From a phage: 58,342 nucleotides of DNA. The DNA lies in the sequence record PZ445426.1, one strand, 5' to 3'. The notes beneath the pieces were generated by a model. The model was not told where the DNA came from. It did not search any database and worked only from the letters and a program-made list of their open reading frames with translations. Shown piece by piece: positions 1 through 55,550 of the stretch (its first letter is position 1; the number at the start of each line of letters is the position of its first letter). The position numbers and the translations under genes were made by a program.

Positions 1-1560
1 ATGGAGCTAAACCGACAACCTGATAACATGCCGCGAGTAGTCTGGAAGCCACATCCAGGTTCACAGACGCTCGCTTTATCCTGCCCTGCTGATATCATTT
101 TATACCACGGTACTCGCGGTCCTGGAAAGACGGACTGCCAGCTTATGCGTTTCCGTAAGAATGTTGGCGTAGGGTATGGTAAGTTCTGGAAGGGTATTAT
201 ATTCGACCGTGAATATAAAAACCTTGATGACCTTGTAACCAAATCACAGCGTTGGTTCCCCGAATTTAAAGATGGTGCTAAATTCCTTAGCTCCAAGTCT
301 GATTATAAATGGGTTTGGCCCACTGGGGAAGAATTGCTGTTCCGTGTTGCTTGCAAAGAAAAGGATTATTGGTCTTATCATGGTCACGAATACCCGTTTA
401 TCGGATGGAACGAATTAACAAAGTATCCGGACGGGCGTTTGTTTGAAGCAATGATGTCCTGTAACCGTTCATCGTTCCTACCAGAAGATAATCCAATTAT
501 CAATCCGGATGGTACTGTCACATATTTACCAGATATTCCTCTGGAAGTGTTCGCTACCAGTAACCCGTTTGGTGCGGGGCATAACTGGGTTAAGAAACGC
601 TTCATTGACGCTGCGCCGATGGGTAAAATACTCAGGAAAACTACGCGAGTGTTCAACCCGCGGACGCAGAAAGAGGAAGATGTGGTTACGACGCAATGCC
701 ATATCTTCGGATCTTATCGTGAGAACAAAAACCTAAGCCCAAAATATATTGCAGAGCTTATGTCTATCACAGACCCGAACAAACGCGCTGCATGGTTGGG
801 TGGTAGCTGGGATATTACTTCAGGTGGTATGTTCGATGACCTGTGGCGTAGCACGGTTCATAAAATACGCCCTTTCCCGATTCCAGCGAGTTGGAAGATC
901 ACACGTTCTTTCGACTGGGGTTCTTCAAAACCTTTCTCTGTTGGTTGGTGGGCTATTAGTGATGGTTCGGACGTTGTGCGTGAAGATGGTACTACATTCT
1001 CCACGGTCCGCGGTGACCTGTTTAGGATTAACGAATGGTACGGGACCAACGGTAAAACAAACGAAGGTCTACATTTGCTGGACTCAGAGATTGCAAGCGG
1101 TATACTGGAGCGGGAATTGGCCTGGGGTATACACGATCGTGTAGTTCCTGGACCTGCGGATAACTCTATTTGGGATCTGGAGAACAATAACTCTACCGCT
1201 GCAACAATGGCGAAGAAAATTCGTCTTAACGGGAAGTTATACGACGGTATACATTGGAAGCGTAGTGATAAGTCTGCTGGGTCACGTAAACGCGGATGGC
1301 AGAAAATGCGTGAGTTTCTTAAAGCTGCATTGCGGGAAGATGCAAACGGTAAGCCTTTGCCGGGACCACGTGAAAATCCAGCAATGTATGTTTTCGATAA
1401 CTGCAATTATTTCTTTGAACTTGTTCCAAGTCTTCCGCGCGATGAAGTAGATCAGGACGACGTTGATACGGAATGTGAAGACCATATGGGCGATGAAGTT
1501 CGTTATATGGTTCTGGATCAAGCTGTTTATACAGGTGTTGGCAAAACTATCGGTATTTAA
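1..1560 (+). CDS. terL: terminase large subunit
   Basis: 519-aa ORF; Walker A-like GTRGPGKT near N-terminus; first gene of the packaging/head block; terS-like ORF at window end. Start could be ATG at 28. Confidence 0.75.
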   Translation: MELNRQPDNMPRVVWKPHPGSQTLALSCPADIILYHGTRGPGKTDCQLMRFRKNVGVGYGKFWKGIIFDREYKNLDDLVTKSQRWFPEFKDGAKFLSSKSDYKWVWPTGEELLFRVACKEKDYWSYHGHEYPFIGWNELTKYPDGRLFEAMMSCNRSSFLPEDNPIINPDGTVTYLPDIPLEVFATSNPFGAGHNWVKKRFIDAAPMGKILRKTTRVFNPRTQKEEDVVTTQCHIFGSYRENKNLSPKYIAELMSITDPNKRAAWLGGSWDITSGGMFDDLWRSTVHKIRPFPIPASWKITRSFDWGSSKPFSVGWWAISDGSDVVREDGTTFSTVRGDLFRINEWYGTNGKTNEGLHLLDSEIASGILERELAWGIHDRVVPGPADNSIWDLENNNSTAATMAKKIRLNGKLYDGIHWKRSDKSAGSRKRGWQKMREFLKAALREDANGKPLPGPRENPAMYVFDNCNYFFELVPSLPRDEVDQDDVDTECEDHMGDEVRYMVLDQAVYTGVGKTIGI

Positions 1561-1571
1561 CTGGAGGGTAT

Positions 1572-3068
1572 ATGGGTATTGATGCAACTCACCCGCTATA
1601 TGACAAGTGGAAGGACGCATGGGTTAAGTGCAACGACTGCTATGAGGGTGAAGATAAAATTAAGGAAGAAGGTGTTAAATATCTACCACCTTTAGCTTCC
1701 ATGCTTATTGATGGGATGAATAATCCTAATGATCTGGGCTTTCAACGTTGGCTCGCTTATCGTCTGCGTGCTAACTTCCCTGACGATTATTCAAGTGCTG
1801 TTACAAACAATTTAGGTCTGCTGCACCAGAAGCCGCCTACAATCCAGCTTCCTCCTGAAATGGAGTACATGCGGGAGCTGTGTACTGCGGACGGTGAAGA
1901 CATTATTGCTCTGCTACGTCGCATCAACGAAATGCAGTTAAAAAATGGACGTTTGGGCCTGCTGCTGGACTTGCCAAAAGGTGAGGATGTAAATAACAGA
2001 CCGTATATTAGCGTTTATGATGCTTTATCCATTATCAACTGGGATGATGGTAAAGATGAACTAGGTAATATCAACTTGAACATGGTTGTACTGGATGAAA
2101 GCGGTCCTGTACGTGTTAATCAGTTTGACTGGAAAGAAGAGAAGCGTTATCGGGTTCTGCAATTAGGTCCGATGGACACAGATGAAGTTGCAGGTGGTGC
2201 GGTTTACTCCCAGCATCTATTTATCAACAATACCAATTATGATGAAGGGCAAATGATTGCTCCTTATTATAAAGGTAATACGCTGGACGAAATACCTTTC
2301 CAGTTTGTTAATACAACAGATATTACACCAGCACCGGAAGCGCCTCCATTGTTGGGGCTAGCTAACATCTGCTTAAGCATGTACCGAAGTGACGCTGATT
2401 ACCGTCAAAGTCTGCATATGCAGGGTCAGGACACGTTAGTTGTTGTTGGTGGCTCGGGTGAGAATGGAGATAAAGCCCCTCAGCGCATCGGTCCTGGAGC
2501 GGTCATTAACGTTGCTCTTGGGGGTGACGCTAAATATGTAGGCGTTAGCGGCGATGGTTTGTCCGAGCAACGCCTTGCATTGGCAGCGGATAAGCAGGAA
2601 GCTCAGATTAAAGCTGGGCAGATGGTAAACAACACCAAGAGCACGCAGGAATCAGGCGAAGCTATGAAAACGCGTATTGCTGCGCGTACCGCTAGCCTGA
2701 TTCGAATTGCGTATACTGGTGCGGCAGGTTTGGAAAACTTGCTGAAGGTCTGCGCTAAATGGATGGGTGCTGATCCAGAGAAAGTTGTGGTTAAGCCTAA
2801 TCTTGAATTTACCAAGAGCATGTTTAACGGTCAGGACTTTGTTCAAATTATTACTGCACGCAACCTTAAGGCTCCGATCAGCTTGCAGTCTATTCATGGC
2901 TGGCTTGTTGATCAGGGCTTAACCACACTAAGCTTTGAAGAAGAAATGGCAATTCTTGAAGAGGAGCTTAAGAAGTGGCCTCTGCCTGATGATGCTAAAG
3001 CTGATTTAAACGCAGAGCAGCAAGTAAACAAAGATCCTAAGGAAGACGACGCTTCCGATAAAGAATAG
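1572..3068 (+). CDS. putative portal protein
   Basis: 498-aa ORF directly after terL; GGAGGG RBS; call by size and position. Confidence 0.55.
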   Translation: MGIDATHPLYDKWKDAWVKCNDCYEGEDKIKEEGVKYLPPLASMLIDGMNNPNDLGFQRWLAYRLRANFPDDYSSAVTNNLGLLHQKPPTIQLPPEMEYMRELCTADGEDIIALLRRINEMQLKNGRLGLLLDLPKGEDVNNRPYISVYDALSIINWDDGKDELGNINLNMVVLDESGPVRVNQFDWKEEKRYRVLQLGPMDTDEVAGGAVYSQHLFINNTNYDEGQMIAPYYKGNTLDEIPFQFVNTTDITPAPEAPPLLGLANICLSMYRSDADYRQSLHMQGQDTLVVVGGSGENGDKAPQRIGPGAVINVALGGDAKYVGVSGDGLSEQRLALAADKQEAQIKAGQMVNNTKSTQESGEAMKTRIAARTASLIRIAYTGAAGLENLLKVCAKWMGADPEKVVVKPNLEFTKSMFNGQDFVQIITARNLKAPISLQSIHGWLVDQGLTTLSFEEEMAILEEELKKWPLPDDAKADLNAEQQVNKDPKEDDASDKE

Positions 3069-3098
3069 TTGCAACTTGCAAGTTGATCGGTTTATATT
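3069..3098 (+). promoter_or_regulatory. candidate sigma70-like promoter (TTGCAA-18-TATATT) overlapping a perfect 14-bp palindrome CAACTTGCAAGTTG (3072..3085)
   Basis: hexamers and palindrome read directly; lies between portal stop and next gene. Confidence 0.3.
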
Positions 3099-3163
3099 AA
3101 CGAACACGGGGCTGGGACGGCTCAGCTCCAAAAACGTCACACGGGTGACAACGGAGATAAGAA

Positions 3164-4036
3164 ATGAAAAAGAGTTCTGTAGCTATCAGTATTGGTCTTG
3201 CTCTAATTAATCCACGCGCTCGCGGTGAAGGTGATGTGGAATTGCAATACGAGTATGCATCTGCGGAAGAAATCCCGGCAGAATTTGCAACTCTTTACGC
3301 AGAGCAGGGCGGTAAATACGTTCTTGCAAAAGTCAAAGGTGTAGCACCTGCTGATAGCGTTCGTCGTCTGGAAAGTGCGTTAGCAAAAGAGCGTAACGAT
3401 CATCGTCAGGTGAAACAACAAATTAGCGCACTGGGACGTCCAGTTGAAGAAGTCCTGGCGGATTTGGATCGTATCCCTGAGCTGGAAGCTGCTGCTAACG
3501 GTAAAGGTAATCCGGAAGACATTGAGAAGATGGTCAAAGCCCGTCTTGCTCCGCTTGAGCGCCAATTGCAAACTGTTATCACCGAGCGTGACACGGTTAA
3601 GCAGGAAATTGAAGGCTACCGCACTCGCGAAACTAAAGCGAAGATTAAAGATGCAGTTATTGCCGCTGCATCCGGTGCTAAGCTGCGTCCGTCTGCTATT
3701 GAAGATGCGGTGACTTATGCACAGTTGCAAATGACAGTCGACGAGAACGGCAATGTGGTTACGAAAGATGGGGCTGGTGTAACTCCTTACCTGACTCCGG
3801 CGGATTGGCTGAACGAAATCCTTCCGAAACGTCCGCACTGGGTTGAAGGTTCTGCTGGTGGCGGTGCATCTGGTCCTGGCGCTGGCGGTCATCACGGTGA
3901 AGACCCGTACAGTCACGACGGTTGGAACATCTCTAAGCAGATGAATCTCTGGAAAACTAATCAATCTTTAGCTAAACGCTTAGCTGAAAAGAATGGCGTA
4001 GACCCGCTGAAGCCTGTACGTCCTGCTAAGAAATAA
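3164..4036 (+). CDS. putative scaffolding protein
   Basis: 290 aa; charged, coiled-coil-like middle and Gly-rich C-terminus; between portal and capsid genes; GGAG RBS. Confidence 0.4.
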   Translation: MKKSSVAISIGLALINPRARGEGDVELQYEYASAEEIPAEFATLYAEQGGKYVLAKVKGVAPADSVRRLESALAKERNDHRQVKQQISALGRPVEEVLADLDRIPELEAAANGKGNPEDIEKMVKARLAPLERQLQTVITERDTVKQEIEGYRTRETKAKIKDAVIAAASGAKLRPSAIEDAVTYAQLQMTVDENGNVVTKDGAGVTPYLTPADWLNEILPKRPHWVEGSAGGGASGPGAGGHHGEDPYSHDGWNISKQMNLWKTNQSLAKRLAEKNGVDPLKPVRPAKK

Positions 4037-4037
4037 G

Positions 4038-4083
4038 TTGACATCCCGACGTCCCTGATGTTAAGTTTCAACACATCAGGGAC
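4038..4083 (+). promoter_or_regulatory. TTGACA hexamer (4038..4043) followed by perfect 11-bp inverted repeat GTCCCTGATGT/ACATCAGGGAC (4051..4083) upstream of capsid gene
   Basis: read directly; no U-tract after the stem so not a classic terminator. Confidence 0.3.
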
Positions 4084-4158
4084 ACGGGTTCCTAAACAGC
4101 CTTCCACGGGGAAAGGCTACCAACAGTAAACAAATCAATCCTTTTCCTGGAGACAAGT

Positions 4159-5220
4159 ATGTCTAAATCTAAAATTATTCTACCATTTGGTCGTGGTGAA
4201 ACTGACCTGACTCGTTTGAAGGATGTCATTGTCCCTGAGATCTTCACTGGTTATGTGCAGACGCAGACTGCTGAACTTTCTGCTCTGATTCAATCCGGTG
4301 CGGTTGTAATGGACGAGCGTTTATCTGCTAACCTTGCTGGTGCAGGTCTGACTTTTAACGAGCCGTTCTATAACGACCTGAAAGATGAAGACGAAGATAT
4401 CGCGGTTGATAAAGGCAATCCGTCCAAACCGTCAAACATCACTACCGGATCTGAAGTTCAGGTTCGTATGAGCCGTTCGAAATCCTGGGGTTCTGCGGAT
4501 CTGGTATCAGCTTTGATTGGTAACGACCCAATGACCGCTATCGGTAACCGCGTGTCTGCGTGGTGGGTTCGCCGTCTGCAAGCTGCATACATCGCAACCT
4601 GGAAAGGCGTATTTGCTAATGCGAAGAAATCCCATAAGGATGATCTGACGTTCGATATTTCCGGTTCTTCATTTGTAAACAACCAGACCAACTTTACCGC
4701 GTCTAACTTCATCAACGCAACTGCAACGATGGGTGATGCTGCTCGTGGTCTGACCATGATTATGGTTCACTCTACCGTTCGTAACCGTATGCGTCAGCTA
4801 AACCTGATCGACTTCATTCCGGATGCTCGCGGCGAAACTCAGTTTGAGTATTATCAGGGTCTGCGTATTATTGAAGACGACTCCATGCCGCACGAACCGT
4901 CTACTGGTGTGTTTGAAAGCTGGCTGTTCGGCCCGGGCGCGACTGCAATGGGTGCTGGATCACCGAAAGTTCCGACCGCTGTGGTGCGTGACGAAGCCGC
5001 TAACCAAGGCGCTGGTGAAGAAGTTCTTCACAACCGTGTTGAATGGATTCTGCATCCGGTTGGCCATGCTTGGGCTGCTACTCAAACTGCTAAAGGTGGT
5101 CCGTCTAACGCTGCAACTACTAACAACCTGGCCCATGAAGATTCCTGGCGTCGTGCGTTCCCTGAGCGCAAGCAGCTTAAAGTTGCGCGCCTGATCACTC
5201 GTGAGTATCAGGGTTCCTAA
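4159..5220 (+). CDS. major capsid protein
   Basis: 353-aa ORF with GGAGA RBS after the scaffold-like gene and before an intrinsic terminator; call by position. Confidence 0.55.
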   Translation: MSKSKIILPFGRGETDLTRLKDVIVPEIFTGYVQTQTAELSALIQSGAVVMDERLSANLAGAGLTFNEPFYNDLKDEDEDIAVDKGNPSKPSNITTGSEVQVRMSRSKSWGSADLVSALIGNDPMTAIGNRVSAWWVRRLQAAYIATWKGVFANAKKSHKDDLTFDISGSSFVNNQTNFTASNFINATATMGDAARGLTMIMVHSTVRNRMRQLNLIDFIPDARGETQFEYYQGLRIIEDDSMPHEPSTGVFESWLFGPGATAMGAGSPKVPTAVVRDEAANQGAGEEVLHNRVEWILHPVGHAWAATQTAKGGPSNAATTNNLAHEDSWRRAFPERKQLKVARLITREYQGS

Positions 5221-5251
5221 GGCTTCACTCAACGCCGCGCTGTAGTATTTT

Positions 5252-5277
5252 GGGGACATTTATGTCCCCTCTTTTTT
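5252..5277 (+). terminator. rho-independent terminator (GGGGACA-ttta-TGTCCCC + T-tract)
   Basis: stem-loop and T-run read directly downstream of the capsid gene. Confidence 0.6.
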
Positions 5278-5289
5278 AGGAGAACAACC

Positions 5290-5613
5290 ATGCGTTATCA
5301 ACGTTATGAACGACATGACTTGATGGAAAAATCGTTGCAGGTGGAGCCAATTTCGATTACTCTCGATCCTGCTACGATTGACACCACAACTTCAGAAGTA
5401 AAAACGGTTACTGTTAAAATAAACTTTGTCCCAGGCGGAACTACAAACAAAGCGTATAGTGCGTCAGTTGACGGTTCCTCTGCTACAATTAAAGACAACG
5501 GGGACGGTACAATTACTGTGACCACAACCGCAAGCAGTGGTACTTCAAACTTGACAGTAACGTCCAAGGCAAAGGATAGTGTTACTGGTACATGTGTTAT
5601 TAATGTGACCTAA
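5290..5613 (+). CDS. Ig-like (Big_2-like) domain protein, possible capsid decoration protein
   Basis: 107 aa; Thr/Ser/Val-rich beta-strand pattern (GDGTITVTTTASSGTSNLTVTSKA) typical of bacterial Ig-like domains; AGGAGA RBS. Confidence 0.45.
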   Translation: MRYQRYERHDLMEKSLQVEPISITLDPATIDTTTSEVKTVTVKINFVPGGTTNKAYSASVDGSSATIKDNGDGTITVTTTASSGTSNLTVTSKAKDSVTGTCVINVT

Positions 5614-5630
5614 AAAATAAGGATTAAACA

Positions 5631-6284
5631 ATGAAGACATTAATTGAAGCATTGTTAGAACTTGATCCGGAGAACCCGAATCATTGGACCAGCGATGGCT
5701 TACCTAAAGTTGATGCTCTGCGTTTCGCTACCGCTAACCCGTCTTTAACCCGCGACGATATTACAACTGCTGCTCCGCTGTTTACCCGCGATAACCGCGT
5801 GCTGGAAGAGCCCGAGCCAGTGGAACCTGTTAAATCTGCTGATCCAGTTTTACATGAATCTGTCAAACAGGAGAAAGCTCATGAAGAACAAAAGAAAGTC
5901 GCGGTTGCAACGATGCAAATCGAAGTTAAGATTAGCGAAGCATTGCGTGCTCTTCTGGAGCCGGAAAAAATCGGTGACACTTCCAGCCTAAGCGATGAAG
6001 AGCTGAAAGCGAAGCGTGAAAAGCTTAGCAATGTGGTTAAAGAGATTGCCCACACTAAGCACGCGCTGGAGCTTGCTATTGCCGACGTTCAAGCGGATCT
6101 GGATAAGATTATCGTTGAGCAGGAAAGTCGTCGTCCTAAGTCCGGTCTTACTGCAACTCAAATGTATCTTGAAGCGCAGAAAAAACGTAAACCTGAAGAC
6201 ATGCTTTCTGACCATCGCTTCCAGAACCCTATTGACGATCCGGTCGCCCGTATGGTTGCACGTAATATGATGCGTCGAGGTTAA
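5631..6284 (+). CDS. hypothetical protein (head module)
   Basis: 217-aa ORF with AAGGA RBS; acidic/coiled-coil-like; no recognisable motif. Confidence 0.45.
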   Translation: MKTLIEALLELDPENPNHWTSDGLPKVDALRFATANPSLTRDDITTAAPLFTRDNRVLEEPEPVEPVKSADPVLHESVKQEKAHEEQKKVAVATMQIEVKISEALRALLEPEKIGDTSSLSDEELKAKREKLSNVVKEIAHTKHALELAIADVQADLDKIIVEQESRRPKSGLTATQMYLEAQKKRKPEDMLSDHRFQNPIDDPVARMVARNMMRRG

Positions 6285-20782: not shown

Positions 20783-21937
20783 ATGGCTAAAACTATCACA
20801 AACATACCAAAAGATATCACTAACCTTAAAAACGGTAAGTTAGATAAGAGTGCAAACCTTAGCGACTTAGCAGATCGCGAAGTTGCCTGGTTAAACGTGC
20901 GTCCTATTGGACCTACTCCTCTTGCGGGGGATCCTGTGGACGACCTTGACGCAACTACAAAACGTTGGGTGCAGAATAAATTTGACAATGGTATCGCCAA
21001 TACATCATGGAGCGTAATAAACGCAGACCAAAGCGCGCCAGCAGTAGCCACCGTGGTTGTCGGCGGGAAAGTAGAGTCAAAATATACCAATCCTAGTTCA
21101 TCACAGTTTGCACGTCTGTACTCAAGTTCTTCATGGGGTTCTTCTAGTTATGCTGTTGTAGAGGCAGAGGGTTCTTCCAAGCACGCTTATAAATTCTATG
21201 AGAATGGCACAGTTGACTTCCGACAGTCAGGGAAGACCAACCCATTCCGCATGTATACAAATATTGGAACATGGAGTGACATAACGGACGCCACGGTATC
21301 CAACTTGACAACTAACGGAATGGACAGGGTGGCCATTTCGAGCGGCTCAGATACTCTGGTGCGCGGATATTCTATCAGCGCCACCAAACCTAATGGATAT
21401 CCAACAAAGGTTGGATATCACATGTATATTCCAGGCAATGATGCATTTGGTATAGCTTGCATGGTAATCGGTGGAGATAACGGAAAATTTTGCCGTTACT
21501 TTTTTGACATTGATGGTCAAATATATGGTTCGACCGATTACGGGAACTTCAGTTATACGAAAAATGGCACTTCTGACTCACGTGTAAAACACGGCATCGC
21601 CCCTGTTGGAGTTGACAAATCATACTCTAATATTAAAGGGCTGGAATTTGTAGAGTTCATTTATGATAATGACGAACAAAATCGAGTTCGGCATGGCGTG
21701 ATTGCACAGCAAGCAGAGGTTGTTGAGCCTTTATATGTCAAGACGCGCAAATATGTTGGCAATAATCCAGGAGAGATTGTTGAACAAAAGGAACTTGACA
21801 CAACACCTATGCTTTTGGACACTATGCATGTCGTGCAAGAACTTATAAAACGGATTGAATCTTTGCAAGAAGATAATAAGAAACTAAAAGAACTCATTTC
21901 TAATCTAAACAATTCACAGACTACAGATCTTCCATAA
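20783..21937 (+). CDS. tail fibre/spike protein with C-terminal S74-type intramolecular chaperone-like domain
   Basis: ATG 20783 preferred over track GTG 20771; SDSRVKHGI motif (Ser...Lys five residues later) followed by a helical C-terminus, resembling the self-cleaving chaperone domain of endosialidase/L-shaped fibre proteins. Confidence 0.55.
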   Translation: MAKTITNIPKDITNLKNGKLDKSANLSDLADREVAWLNVRPIGPTPLAGDPVDDLDATTKRWVQNKFDNGIANTSWSVINADQSAPAVATVVVGGKVESKYTNPSSSQFARLYSSSSWGSSSYAVVEAEGSSKHAYKFYENGTVDFRQSGKTNPFRMYTNIGTWSDITDATVSNLTTNGMDRVAISSGSDTLVRGYSISATKPNGYPTKVGYHMYIPGNDAFGIACMVIGGDNGKFCRYFFDIDGQIYGSTDYGNFSYTKNGTSDSRVKHGIAPVGVDKSYSNIKGLEFVEFIYDNDEQNRVRHGVIAQQAEVVEPLYVKTRKYVGNNPGEIVEQKELDTTPMLLDTMHVVQELIKRIESLQEDNKKLKELISNLNNSQTTDLP

Positions 21938-21953
21938 CCACATCTAACTTCCT

Positions 21954-21980
21954 CAGCGCGTCTTCGGGTGCGCTTTTATT
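21954..21980 (+). terminator. possible intrinsic terminator (AGCGC-gtcttcggGT-GCGCT + TTTTATT)
   Basis: short GC stem and T-tract read directly after the tail fibre gene. Confidence 0.4.
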
Positions 21981-22107
21981 GGCTGTCAATCCTAATTTAC
22001 AAAATCTTTACATTTGGATCATTGTAAAAAGCATGTTAAGGGGTATGCTTTACTTCGTAACCAGTTGGTTACATCCGCTTAACAAATCCATATATGGAGA
22101 TTTTCCT

Positions 22108-22698
22108 ATGTCTGACATGACTCTTTTACCTACTAATCTCGGTGGCGACGGTTTCGGCGGTGAAGCTGGTGCGGCCGGTATTGGTGGCGCGATCGGTGGC
22201 TTAATTGGTTCCTGGATCGGTAATGGTTGGGGTGGCAATGGTGGTTGGGGTGGTCGCGGTAACTTCGCTGGCCCGGTGGAAGTGCAAGCTTCTGTTGACA
22301 CCAACGCAATTCTGCAAGCTATCAACAACGGTACTCTTCAGACCATTCAGGGGCAGAACGGCACTAACCTGACTGTTGAGCGCTCCGCTGCTTCTACCTA
22401 TAACGGCATCACTCAGCAGAACACTCAGAACATGCTGGCTTCCGTTCAGGGCTTTGCTGGTCTGAACACACAGATCCAGGGCGGCACCAGCCAAGTGCTC
22501 GCGGCTCTGTGTAACAACGAAGCAGCTAACATTACCCGTTCCTTCCAGGCGCAGCTAGAAGCTCAGAAGTGTTGCTGCGAAACCAACCTGAACATCGAGC
22601 GTCAAGCAGAAGCTACTCGTGCGCTCCTGCGCGATCAGCACGCACAAGCGCATAATCATAGTTATTCCAACAAAAGAAATAAGTCATTGCTGCAATAA
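22108..22698 (+). CDS. glycine-rich (glycine-zipper) protein with C-terminal Cys cluster
   Basis: 196 aa from ATG 22108 (GGAG RBS); N-terminus MSDMTLLPTNLGG then long GxxxG-rich stretch; KCCCET near C-terminus. Confidence 0.5.
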   Translation: MSDMTLLPTNLGGDGFGGEAGAAGIGGAIGGLIGSWIGNGWGGNGGWGGRGNFAGPVEVQASVDTNAILQAINNGTLQTIQGQNGTNLTVERSAASTYNGITQQNTQNMLASVQGFAGLNTQIQGGTSQVLAALCNNEAANITRSFQAQLEAQKCCCETNLNIERQAEATRALLRDQHAQAHNHSYSNKRNKSLLQ

Positions 22699-34091: not shown

Positions 34092-34150
34092 TGCGATCCC
34101 CTATAAATAAGTAATGCCCCAATAGTAGGGGCATTAGATGTTGAAGTCAA

Positions 34151-36127
34151 TTAGAAAGGAACGTAATCCGGATCATCTACTTGTACAGGGTTAACCACAT
34201 TGTTCACCGTTATACCTTGCGTATTCTGCGAAACAATATCGTCCCAGCTTACATCATCGTTATAGCTCGGACCTTCTGTTGTTCCATCCTGCCCGTATAC
34301 TTTAATCTGAATAGCTTCGTCGTCCTGTGGAGCTTCAAACTTACCGAAACAAGTACCATCATAATCATAGTTCAATATCTCAGGCCATTTCTTATTGGTA
34401 TGAACTTTGATGTATTTTGGTGTTTTAAGCATTGCAGCAACATCAAGGGCTTCTTCAATAGTTTGTGGTAAAGGTAAATGTGTCCTTTTCTTCCACCATG
34501 CCACCGCTTTACGACCCGCCCAGTCACCATGAAGTAGAGCTACCCATTCGCTGAATATTTTACTACCGCAATAATAAGTCACCTTCATTGTTGGAGGTTT
34601 GGAGCTGTCATTGCGTTTAGTGTGCTTCGCATAAGTAACATGCGTAACTTTAAAGTCTTCAACTACAGGAATGTCCTGCTTGATCAGGGCTTCCGTACTT
34701 GCAGCTTTCTTGAGTTTGGTCTGGAACTTAAACTCATGGCCGCAAAAGCCTTCTTTAACGTAATCCGTCCCGCGTAGCCTAAAACCTTTCAGATATAATT
34801 GTTGAACTTGTTCCTGTGTGACGCTGTCCATTGGGATTGGTGCGAAGCCACCGCAATAGCGAGCGGATGCATGATTATACGACCCACATACATCGCATTC
34901 TTTAACCGGAGCAGTGCCAGCACCTTTTTCGCCCGGGCGCTTGGGTTTAACAGGGTCGTTAATAGGGCCCAAACGGCGCGTATTACCGCTGAAATCCAGT
35001 ACAAGGCAGTTCTGCTTGGGGCTTGCCGCAATAGCTTGTAAGCGTCCCTCCTGCGTGGAAAGATCAAAGCCCTCCGCGTACACCGGACGCGTACCGCGAC
35101 CCAGCATCTGAACCCATAACACCGCCGACGCAGTGGGGCGAAGCATGATAATCAGATCAAGCATTGGATGGTCGAAACCTGTGGTTAAGACGTTGTTGTT
35201 CGTTAACGCACGAAATTCACCGCGCTTGAACTTTTCAATAATCTCGTCACGCTCTTTTGCATCAAGCTTTGAGTGAATACATCCGCAACTAATACCCATA
35301 TCATTCAGCATATCACACGCATCTTTAGCGTGTTCAATACCAGAACAAAATATAAGCCAGCTTTGACGGTCTTCACCACATTCAATGGCTTCCTCAAGTG
35401 CGCGGAGTGTTGCGTCGTCGCGATTTACCGCACTTTGCAGCTCACTTTGAATAAACTCACCACCGCGTTTCCCTACCCCGTTGAGGTCCAACTCCATCTT
35501 TGTACGCTTCGGCACAACCGGAAGCAAATAACCTTGCTCCAGGAACCAGTTAAAGGCTTCAGGGGTAGTTGCATCAAACGTTACTTTATCAAATAAAGCA
35601 TCATCGTCTTCGTTTTCCTTAACAATTGAGCCGTAACCCAGTCGATAAGGTGTAGCGGTAAGACCGATAATTTTTAAATACGGGTTAACTTCACGCAATG
35701 CTGCAAAGAACTTCTTATACATTGTTGCATCACGCGGACTAATAAGGTGCGCTTCATCCACAAAGATTAGATCAACCTTGCCAAACTTTTTAGGATGCTT
35801 AGCAACAGATGCAATCCCCGCAAATGTGATAAGATTATAAACTTCTTTACGCTTCAAACCTGCGCTGTAAATACCTGCTGGCGCTTCAGGCCAGACTTTC
35901 ATTAATTTATCATAGTTTTGCGCAATCAACTCTTTGACGTGAGTTAACATCATTACGCGCTGGTTTGGATACCATTTATAAAGCAGATCGAGGAACCCCG
36001 CGATAACGAGCGATTTTCCTGTCCCTGTTGGTAACAGGATCAAAGGGTTCCCCGCGTTACCCTTTTCAGCATCAAAATAGCGGAATACGCTATAAACTGC
36101 TTCCTGTTGATAATCTCTTAATTTCAT
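34151..36127 (-). CDS. SF2 DEAD/DEAH-box helicase
   Basis: motif I LLPTGTGKS, motif II DEAH, motif III TATP, motif VI QMLGRGTR; C-terminal Cys-rich extension. Confidence 0.8.
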   Translation of the reverse strand: MKLRDYQQEAVYSVFRYFDAEKGNAGNPLILLPTGTGKSLVIAGFLDLLYKWYPNQRVMMLTHVKELIAQNYDKLMKVWPEAPAGIYSAGLKRKEVYNLITFAGIASVAKHPKKFGKVDLIFVDEAHLISPRDATMYKKFFAALREVNPYLKIIGLTATPYRLGYGSIVKENEDDDALFDKVTFDATTPEAFNWFLEQGYLLPVVPKRTKMELDLNGVGKRGGEFIQSELQSAVNRDDATLRALEEAIECGEDRQSWLIFCSGIEHAKDACDMLNDMGISCGCIHSKLDAKERDEIIEKFKRGEFRALTNNNVLTTGFDHPMLDLIIMLRPTASAVLWVQMLGRGTRPVYAEGFDLSTQEGRLQAIAASPKQNCLVLDFSGNTRRLGPINDPVKPKRPGEKGAGTAPVKECDVCGSYNHASARYCGGFAPIPMDSVTQEQVQQLYLKGFRLRGTDYVKEGFCGHEFKFQTKLKKAASTEALIKQDIPVVEDFKVTHVTYAKHTKRNDSSKPPTMKVTYYCGSKIFSEWVALLHGDWAGRKAVAWWKKRTHLPLPQTIEEALDVAAMLKTPKYIKVHTNKKWPEILNYDYDGTCFGKFEAPQDDEAIQIKVYGQDGTTEGPSYNDDVSWDDIVSQNTQGITVNNVVNPVQVDDPDYVPF

Positions 36128-52983: not shown

Positions 52984-53201
52984 AAATATTCATAATACTA
53001 GGCGTTATACTTGCCTTTGTTGTATTTGCAATCGTAGACTCCAAAGAAATGGAGCAGCAAAACTGTCAACGTACTGGTAACAGCCGGGAATATATTGTTT
53101 GGAACAATATTTACGATGCAAAAGGTAATTTTATGTCAATGTACCCACAGTTTATTACTGAGTATGAATATAAATGTGATGACTATAACAGGTGGAGATA
53201 A
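52980..53201 (+). CDS. small membrane-anchored protein
   Basis: 73 aa; N-terminal hydrophobic helix MKIFIILGVILAFVVFAIV. Confidence 0.4.
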   Translation: MKIFIILGVILAFVVFAIVDSKEMEQQNCQRTGNSREYIVWNNIYDAKGNFMSMYPQFITEYEYKCDDYNRWR

Positions 53202-53203
53202 TA

Positions 53204-53746
53204 ATGAGCTGTCAAAAATGTAACGGAACGGGAATGGTTGATAGTGGTGGAGTTCAACCGTGGGGTGAGCCTATTCTGGTGGAGTGCGATTGTTTATATC
53301 GTGAGCGTGATGCTTGGGAGCTGGATCGAGCTGGAGGTTATTACTCCCGTCATGTTATGGCAATGACATCCGAAGGTTTGCACAGCAAAGGTGATATTGC
53401 TGCGGAACTGGGTTATCGTGATATGCGGATTGACCAGTTAGAAGCTGAATGGCGTGCTCAGGAAGAACGTGCAGAAAATGCTGAGACGGATCTTGTCGAC
53501 ATGCGTGCTGCTGAGCACGCTCTATCCGATTCTTATATTCGTTTGCGTCAAATTGTTGGTGCAATGAATCCGCCTGGTGTGAGCAGCGAAGAGGTGTGGG
53601 CGCATACCGAGAAGAAGGCTCAAGAGTTGCGTGATCGCTGCGAAGCTCTGGAAGCTATAGCAAAGGACTTCCTGCGTCGTAATAAATATGGTCCTTTGTT
53701 CTATCGTGATTTGTATAACCGTTTTAAGGAGGTTATTGGTGATTGA
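53204..53746 (+). CDS. zinc-finger (CxxCxGxG) coiled-coil protein
   Basis: ATG 53204 (track start 53192 is GTG); N-terminal CQKCNGTG...ECDC. Confidence 0.45.
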   Translation: MSCQKCNGTGMVDSGGVQPWGEPILVECDCLYRERDAWELDRAGGYYSRHVMAMTSEGLHSKGDIAAELGYRDMRIDQLEAEWRAQEERAENAETDLVDMRAAEHALSDSYIRLRQIVGAMNPPGVSSEEVWAHTEKKAQELRDRCEALEAIAKDFLRRNKYGPLFYRDLYNRFKEVIGD

Positions 53747-55303: not shown

Positions 55304-55364
55304 TTTTCTTGCTATCACATAACCCTTCATTGTATTGTGTACCCATCAAATAGAGGGGTACACA

Positions 55365-55550
55365 ATGACCAAACTATACGCCGGATTGTTTTTATTTGCG
55401 ACGTTAATGTTCGCTGGGCTTTATACCTATACAGTAGTCGAACAACCTTCCACGGTTATCCGAATCTTTGCAAGTACAGGGCTTTGTATCTGTCTTATTC
55501 TATTTGTTTTATGCATTGTTATTATCCAAGACCAAAGGAAAATTAAATGA
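55365..55550 (+). CDS. small two-helix membrane protein
   Basis: ATG 55365 with AGAGGGG RBS; two hydrophobic segments. Confidence 0.4.
   Translation: MTKLYAGLFLFATLMFAGLYTYTVVEQPSTVIRIFASTGLCICLILFVLCIVIIQDQRKIK

Follow-up and report, generated by a model that had tools for sequence, protein, structure and literature searches.

We analysed a 58,342-nt stretch of phage DNA (sequence record PZ445426.1; 'the window' below means this whole stretch), focusing on the junction between its head scaffolding and major capsid genes. The genome is that of a Seuratvirus (Queuovirinae), and a sequence search found 95-98% identity over positions 3000-6000 with the Escherichia phages SA80RD, CAjan and Seurat and about 30 others. 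The first 9.5 kb contain only three sizeable gaps, of 95 nt between the portal and scaffold genes, 122 nt between the scaffold and capsid genes and 69 nt between the capsid gene and the next one. In the 122-nt gap, a first-pass annotation made from the sequence alone had noticed a TTGACA hexamer and an 11-bp perfect inverted repeat, and had proposed a 5' leader stem-loop, as a ribonuclease III site or stabiliser, or an operator controlling capsid expression. Its assignment of the downstream gene was borne out, as matches to PHROG 247 and to SPP1 capsid structures identify the major capsid gene. In a scan of five open reading frames Pfam returned no match for either the capsid or the scaffold protein, while PHROGs and PDB did. 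Coding potential of the gap itself (4037-4158) was ruled out by 1-nt and non-triplet indels in relatives.

The hexamer is an exact TTGACA, and the repeat (4051-4083) is made of the arms GTCCCTGATGT and ACATCAGGGAC, which a repeat search returned as 100% complementary. The earlier remark that no U-tract follows was likewise correct, the next bases being ACGGGTTCCTAAAC (tail also given as ACGGGUUCCUAAAC). Folding prolonged the 11-bp stem, in which 6 of the 11 pairs are G-C, by four further G-C pairs (CCCG/CGGG) across a 2x1 internal loop, giving 15 bp in total; we call the whole hairpin H1 (table 1). TAAGTT fills the first six bases of its 11-nt loop, TAAGTTTCAAC. Folded as RNA, the 146-nt region gave z=-3.7, and the 46-nt H1 hairpin folded as DNA reached -15.4 kcal/mol on either strand (z=-6.1 for the + and -6.3 for the - strand). 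If TTGACA is taken as a -35 element, the sole properly spaced -10 sits in the H1 loop, and transcription would start in the 3' arm. A transcript that starts there would lack the 5' arm, so that H1 could form only in RNA that reads through from the scaffold gene, or in DNA. We favour, with a probability of roughly 0.55, the reading that a sigma70-type capsid promoter is nested in a sense-strand hairpin of the upstream transcript.

Table 1. Features of the scaffold-capsid junction, followed by neighbouring and related features of the window.
Feature	Position	Strand	Remarks
-35 hexamer TTGACA	4038-4043	+	1 nt after scaffold stop codon
H1 hairpin	4045-4088	+	outer stem 4045-4048/4085-4088; inner stem 4051-4061/4073-4083; loop 4062-4072
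Extended -10	4059-4067	+	TG 4059-4060, n, TAAGTT 4062-4067; spacer 18; in H1 loop
Predicted transcription start	4073-4076	+	6-9 nt past the -10, by sigma70 geometry; inside H1 3' arm
H1b hairpin, AGGGAC-ACGG-GUUCCU	4078-4093	+	6 bp, ACGG tetraloop; minimum free energy fold of predicted leader; mutually exclusive with H1
H2 hairpin, AGCCUUCC-ACGG-GGAAAGGCU	4098-4118	+	A4114 bulged; four nt after H1b
Pyrimidine tract CCUUUUCC	4140-4147	+	
Shine-Dalgarno (SD) sequence GGAG	4149-4152	+	
Capsid AUG	4159-4161	+	
Major capsid protein	4159-5220	+	PHROG 247, E=4e-104; SPP1 capsid PDB 4an5/6r3a, E=1e-54
Strong canonical intrinsic terminator	5252-5279	+	GGGGACAUUUAUGUCCCC + UCUUUUUU (stem given as GGGGACATTTATGTCCCC, then TCTTTTTT); directly after capsid gene
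Head scaffolding protein	3164-4036	+	PHROG 206; stop TAA 4034-4036
Scaffold-leader kit	3069-3149	+	-35 TTGCAA 3069-3074, N18, -10 TATATT 3093-3098; ACGG hairpins 3108-3129 (A) and 3136-3149 (B)
Portal	1572-3068		
Terminase	1-1560		
Second promoter-in-hairpin site	34102-34153	-	between helicase gene (stop 34151-34153) and 164-aa open reading frame

The junction was collected from STP-SP5 (84% DNA identity), Hafnia phage yong3 (75%), Klebsiella phage K4PH164, Enterobacter phage EC151 and four IMG/VR contigs (capsid 56-59%), as well as from the Nonagvirus phages JenK1, 9g and JenP1, Klebsiella phage K9PH25C2 and 80 further capsid relatives. A scan of viral contigs yielded 4 new divergent relatives among 74 matches, and a metagenome scan with the 15-mer TTCCAYGGGGAAAGG returned no capsid or scaffold relative among the matches listed (L090-L169). 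Comparison with relatives, which had been proposed as a check, found the element conserved, so that the lack of conservation named as part of a refutation did not apply. In all ten distinct leaders of enterobacterial type the hexamer starts with TTG, and the A and C that follow are at least 90% conserved, with TTGAC present in nine and TTGCAA in the exception, K9PH25C2. The TA..TT of the -10 is invariant in the same alignment, as is the G two bases upstream, while the spacer cannot be aligned although both hexamers are kept. Relatives carry TTGACA-18-TAAGTT, TTGACA-18-TAGTTT, TTGACC-17-TAATTT/TAACTT/TAGATT/TAGTTT, TTGACA-17-TAGTTT or TTGCAA-17-TAATTT, and better -10s occur at the same place in remoter relatives (TTGACG-18-TATATT, TTGACA-17-TACAGT and, in Pseudomonas phage PAJD-1, TTGCAA-17-TACATT). 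The hexamers and the layout with the -10 in the loop are common to Seuratvirus, Nonagvirus, EC151-like and Pseudomonas relatives.

Measured against sigma70 rules, the -35 of the window agrees with the consensus at 6/6 positions and is kept in relatives. The 18-nt spacer lies within 17+/-1, and the -10 has A at position 2, T at position 6 and an upstream TGn (TGT-TAAGTT); TAAGTT keeps T-12, A-11 and T-7. These patterns argue for a real capsid-gene promoter, which we hold to be highly probable on sequence grounds. The promoter element seen in the first-pass annotation is very probably a genuine -35, but pairing it with a 5' leader stem-loop is internally inconsistent, since the start falls in the 3' arm.

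Differences in loop length, and bulges, prevented MAFFT and RNAalifold from registering H1 across clades, and a manual table anchored on the -10 was used. The arms have unlike sequences in each clade, while pairing, position and the -10 in the loop are kept. Between Seuratvirus and Nonagvirus, five of the 11 core pairs have changed on both sides with pairing preserved, and JenK1 and K9PH25C2 differ by a G-C to C-G exchange. All one-sided changes give G.U, and 0/44 cells are broken. The long outer stem of the EC151-like clade (clade B) shows A-U<->G.U and C-G<->U.G exchanges. We also searched the capsid leaders for a -10 enclosed in a hairpin, defined as a -35 starting with TTG and matching TTGACA at 4 or more of 6 positions, a -10 reading TAnnnT, 16-18 nt of spacer and an enclosing stem of at least 8 bp. 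This layout was found in 17 of 65 distinct leaders, compared with 0.66 in shuffled sequences (maximum 3). The 17 stems contain 18 G.U pairs and no A.C pair, and 16 of them are more stable on the + strand than on the complement, by a mean of 3.5 kcal/mol. Paired arms that are specific to each clade, together with one-sided changes confined to G.U, therefore point to a sense-strand single-stranded structure, most simply RNA, and speak against a duplex-DNA operator. Selection of H1 as a + strand single-stranded structure is, from these comparisons, very likely. The stem-loop of the first-pass annotation is accordingly conserved, selected and sense-strand, but RNA started at the promoter would miss the 5' arm and so could not have it as its leader.

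The operator that had been offered as an alternative would bind a dimeric DNA-binding regulator, of phage or host, over the capsid promoter. A perfect 11-bp dyad spanning spacer, -10 and +1 is a typical position for a repressor, and phage-encoded transcription regulators have been proposed for 9g (PMC4276943). Palindromic operators are expected to have conserved half-sites and changes indifferent to pairing. Here, however, the half-sites are unrelated among Seuratvirus, Nonagvirus and EC151-like phages and yet always paired, with stem length and position kept, the distance between them varies (loops of 7-20 nt), and only on one strand are the substitutions compatible with G.U pairing. This disfavours the operator, which we consider highly improbable.

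A hairpin or cruciform in the DNA would fit some of the same observations. Depending on supercoiling, it would either expose the weak -10 of the non-template strand to sigma70 region 2 or occlude the promoter. Extruding loops of 7-20 nt is costly, and a cruciform would have to form on both strands, whereas relatives fold worse on the - strand. On the other side, four clades place the -10 at the centre of the loop, the -10s keep mainly the bases that are read single-stranded (T-12, A-11 and T-7), the DNA hairpin of the window is stable, and G.T is tolerated in single-stranded DNA as well. N4-like phage polymerases, moreover, have hairpin promoters (PMC9163698). Overall, we find a structure acting at the DNA level quite improbable.

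Several points count against the nested-promoter reading. H1 of the window is itself symmetric and folds equally well on both strands, so that the strand argument rests on the relatives. The hairpin detector is more tolerant of G.U than of A.C, and the sequences are phylogenetically related, so the shuffle statistics overstate their independence. The -10 agrees with the consensus at only 3/6 positions and the site was not called by a consensus scan with a 4/6 rule, which counts against the strength of the promoter and not its existence. H1 lacks a U-tract here, has a loop of 11 nt and was not reported by a terminator scan. The overlap of promoter and hairpin might reflect economy of space only. 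Finally, transcript data for Queuovirinae were not found in the literature on Seuratvirus or Queuovirinae promoters or transcriptomes.

If a capsid promoter is nested in H1, we picture the junction as follows. TTGACA, the 18-bp spacer and TGT-TAAGTT would form a host sigma70 extended -10 promoter that gives the capsid gene its own transcript from about 4073-4076. The 5' arm of H1 would serve as the promoter spacer, its loop as the -10 and its 3' arm as the start site. The logic of such nesting is obvious, since a promoter puts no constraint on its spacer, on the bases from -10 to start or on those transcribed first, and these are free to carry the arms. H1 would form only in RNA arriving from the scaffold gene. 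There it would most likely define the 3' end of that message, by pausing or partly terminating transcription, by blocking 3' exonucleases or by serving as a processing site; in this read-through RNA it would also sequester H1b, the first of two leader hairpins. RNA started at the promoter, unable to form H1, would instead fold into H1b near its 5' end and H2. Promoter, tandem ACGG hairpins and the terminator after the gene would together make up a cassette for strong expression of the virion's most abundant protein.

A role of H1 at the 3' end, or in the processing, of read-through RNA falls slightly short of even odds in our estimate from sequence, and the candidates, in no order of likelihood, are a pause or leaky terminator, a 3' exonuclease barrier and a ribonuclease III (RNase III) or other processing site. 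In SA80RD (OL960575, L001 1551-1593), H1 is annotated as a 'rho-independent terminator' on WebGeSTer and TransTermHP calls despite having no U-tract. The homologous hairpin is followed by a U-tract in some relatives, namely CTTTTTG in L220, TTTTG in L222, TGTTTT in L264 and, by eye, TTTTT in L247. A U-tract also follows the stem at 34102-34150 on the - strand. This second site, where a promoter again coincides with a hairpin, has TTGACT at 34145-34150 and, after a 17-nt spacer, TACTAT, which lies in a 7-nt loop closed by a GC-rich 9-bp stem, TAATGCCCC/GGGGCATTA, followed by the T-rich CTTATTTATA. In Hafnia phage yong3 its intergenic piece is the sole part of the region that can still be aligned, better kept than the flanking genes; a C-to-U change there gives U.G, and TACTAT has become TATAGT. 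The U-tracts of relatives, the second site and the SA80RD calls therefore tie H1 to the end of the upstream transcript.

One could go further and regard H1 as a plain rho-independent terminator of the scaffold unit, as SA80RD is annotated, with TTGACA incidental. The terminator calls and the U-tracts of relatives agree with this. In the window, however, no U-tract lies 3' of the stem and the loop of 11 nt exceeds the roughly 3-8 nt of intrinsic terminators, although ten pairs of the stem (6 inner and 4 outer) are G-C. The missing U-tract and long loop therefore make efficient intrinsic termination by H1 unlikely, in keeping with the silent terminator scan. Incidental hexamers would, moreover, not be expected to keep TTGAC and TA..TT at fixed spacing across clades while everything between them changes. 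A plain terminator is in our view quite improbable, and the OL960575 terminator calls, which affect both the scaffold-capsid and the portal-scaffold gaps, probably mislabel leader or junction hairpins. In the portal-scaffold gap of OL960575 (L001 609-638), the similar annotation spans the counterpart of hairpin A (window 3108-3129) and ends within B.

Alternatively, H1 might be where RNase III cuts a long polycistronic late transcript and so separates the scaffold and capsid messages; the upstream product would then end in a 3' terminus protected by the hairpin, and the downstream one would begin near the start of the internal promoter. Good E. coli substrates of the enzyme, such as sites of the T7 R type, typically have a helix of about 20 bp, or two turns of coaxial double-stranded RNA, often with an internal loop. 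The hairpin is on the sense strand and covaries, and it is not followed by a U-tract. In the window its helix is 15 bp long and interrupted by a small internal loop; clade B reaches about 19 bp, with internal loop and bulge. All of these helices are nevertheless shorter than good substrates, that of Nonagvirus being only 13-14 bp, and the U-tracts of some relatives point to termination. We rate an RNase III site as unlikely, while noting that processing is compatible with a nested promoter, as one role of H1 on read-through RNA.

The predicted promoter-started RNA carries H1b as its 5'-proximal structure, which overlaps the 3' arm of H1 and would begin 2-5 nt past the predicted start. Stabilisers of the ompA or T7 gene 10 leader type lie within a few unpaired nt of the primary 5' end. 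Ninety per cent of the H1b cells are paired across relatives, and two of five pairs have changed on both sides (A-U<->G-C). The core of H2, GCCTTCCAYGGGGAAAGGC, is single-copy in the window and nearly invariant down to about 56% capsid identity. H1b and H2 gave a covariation score of 0.276 versus 0.169 in shuffles (0/500 reach it). In predicted folds, H2 is mutually exclusive with a long-range helix (4102-4152), in which the H2 loop and 3' half (UUCCACGGGGAAAGG) pair with the pyrimidine tract and SD (CCUUUUCCUGGAG; CCUUUUCC-UGGAG). The predicted free energy of this helix is -16.5 kcal/mol in the window and reaches -22.7 in relatives, and it is compensated in L235 and L253, where GGGAUAGGCUU pairs with AAGUCUAUCC. 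The capsid SD is mostly paired in the predicted ensemble, and the helix would, according to these models, bury it.

Hairpins with the same loop occur in the scaffold leader, where a predicted sigma70-like promoter, analogous to that of the capsid gene, has its -35 directly after the portal stop and hairpin B ends 3 nt before the SD (3153-3156). A 14-bp perfect palindrome, CAACTTGCAAGTTG (3072-3085), covers part of the -35 and of the spacer in this promoter and may represent either a DNA operator or just a pair of overlapping TTGCAA-type hexamers. In both leaders the loop reads ACGG in Seuratvirus and Nonagvirus, but AUGG elsewhere, with scaffold hairpins of the form GUUGC-AUGG-GCAAC in EC151-like phages (L030/L051/L028) and UGAAC-AUGG-GUUCA in a distant relative (L006). 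H1b is one of only two C-A[CU]GG-G hairpins with at least 5 bp in the window. Across the window and four loci of 10-14 kb, such tetraloop hairpins were confined to sense-strand scaffold and capsid leaders; about 0.8 would be expected per window on both strands. At least one was present in 41 of 65 capsid leaders compared with 4.0 in shuffles, and at least two in 16 of 65 compared with 0.1, clustering 45-65 and 75-98 nt before the capsid AUG. For an unbiased test of covariation, 53 sites were picked solely by the core CA[CT]GGG and position and aligned on the core. They scored 0.483, while shuffles gave 0.189 +/- 0.025 (0/500 reach) and slid registers at most 0.281. The pair adjoining the closing pair is formed in 47 of the 53 sites, with five pair types.

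Rfam 15 returned nothing relevant at E<=10 in 3500-4700, nor at E<=1 in 14 diverse leaders. SPP1 and K1G, with 31-36% capsid identity and the same capsid fold, are without this intergenic region and bound the family. Several functions of the tetraloop hairpins were rejected. Terminators were ruled out, as a U-tract followed 0/20 well-paired examples. An upstream open reading frame from the AUG of AUGG loops, and a kissing loop through the CCAUGG palindrome, were both ruled out by the ACG of Seuratvirus and Nonagvirus. For a CsrA site, the GGA core is missing from its expected place in the loops. An exception to the lack of U-tracts was met in Vibrio phage pVco-14 (L299 ~135-175), where the first AUGG hairpin, AAAUGCAACUC-AUGG-GAGUUGCAUUU, is followed by UUUUUUAUUU and, from its sequence, resembles a terminator or attenuator placed in the leader after a TTGCAA-17-TAACAT promoter.

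Tentatively, the A[CU]GG hairpins could represent a new class of cis-regulatory RNA, serving as operator for a conserved factor that acts in trans to coordinate the synthesis of scaffold and capsid, with H2 set against the SD-burying helix and H1 acting as an isoform switch; on the sequences at hand we find this possible but doubtful. Were it true, the factor might be a phage head protein, a host protein or RNA polymerase or the ribosome. H1 in read-through RNA would then swallow the first tetraloop hairpin, and only RNA from the nested promoter would carry the complete operator.

We compared the junction with known systems. In T7, the major capsid gene 10 has the promoter phi10, a 5'-terminal leader stem-loop and the terminator Tphi after the gene. 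The junction resembles this cassette in its predicted capsid promoter directly upstream, H1b near the predicted 5' end, strong SD and strong terminator after the gene. It differs in that the promoter is of host sigma70 type and not for a phage RNA polymerase, and is nested in the hairpin of the upstream transcript; the two have no sequence homology. Known leader hairpins include lambda nut boxB and HK022 put RNA, tandem elements that alter expression downstream of phage promoters, and the hairpin operators of translational repressors, as in the MS2 and PP7 coat proteins and the autoregulation of P22 scaffold. With these our leaders share two small same-loop hairpins with covarying stems, placed between promoter and SD of two co-regulated genes, but an A[CU]GG loop closed by C-G matches none of these operators, nor any Rfam family. 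Promoters of N4 type have a stem of 5-7 bp and a 3-nt loop and are recognised as DNA by the virion RNA polymerase. A promoter element that coincides with a conserved hairpin-forming inverted repeat is common to both, while sigma70-like hexamers, stems of 11-19 bp (11+4 bp in the window), loops of 7-20 nt (11 nt) and RNA-like substitutions set the present element apart. Such hairpin promoters are described for N4-like phages, including the early and middle promoters of LUZ7, and leaky phage terminators are known to tune expression (PMC9163698). Terminators and intercistronic stabiliser hairpins resemble H1 as stable sense-strand hairpins at the end of an upstream cistron, with U-tracts in some relatives, but H1 has no U-tract and a long loop here, and this loop holds the -10 of the next promoter.

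Hardly any of the late-gene control in Queuovirinae, the group of 9g, CAjan and Seurat relatives that includes BASEL phages, has been mapped. For 9g, two divergent promoters at the genome end were predicted and no others (PMC4276943), and the comparative paper on Seuratvirus does not treat regulation. In the literature on Queuovirinae promoters and transcriptomes and on overlapping terminator-promoter designs, we found no description of a promoter nested in a hairpin or of the tetraloop hairpins. From the junction, the scaffold and capsid genes are each predicted to have a host-type promoter of their own, and the GenBank 'terminator' annotation of H1 probably needs correcting. The compact design with a -10 in the loop of the upstream hairpin is seen again at a second locus and in relatives that infect Pseudomonas and other hosts. 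It may be of use as a natural compact promoter and insulator part in phage engineering, and for annotation pipelines that score terminators without regard to overlapping promoters. A tetraloop hairpin that covaries across a wide phage group would offer a handle on how tailed phages balance scaffold and coat synthesis.

By window statistics alone, TTGACA and the inverted repeat are only mildly unusual. Perfect inverted repeats of 11 bp or longer, with loops of 3-40 nt, number four in the window, compared with 0.83 in dinucleotide shuffles (9 of 200 shuffles reach four), and TTGACA has 27 copies on the + strand where about 17 are expected; the probability that one starts within 20 nt upstream of any given point is about 0.009. 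Both elements are taken as real because they are conserved in relatives and not because of these numbers.

The terminator after the capsid gene is annotated as such in Seurat and SA80RD too. The SD of the next gene lies at most 10 nt past it, which implies that some transcription continues into the head and tail genes beyond. Elsewhere in the window, TTGACA clusters as six + strand copies in 1.3 kb (20982-22295) and three minus-strand copies in 150 nt (53069-53215), which may be promoter clusters or repeats. A further inverted repeat at 55334-55366, in the right-hand block of + strand genes, has an 11-bp perfect core (ATTGTGTACCC.../...GGGTACACAAT) within 14-nt arms that match at 93%.

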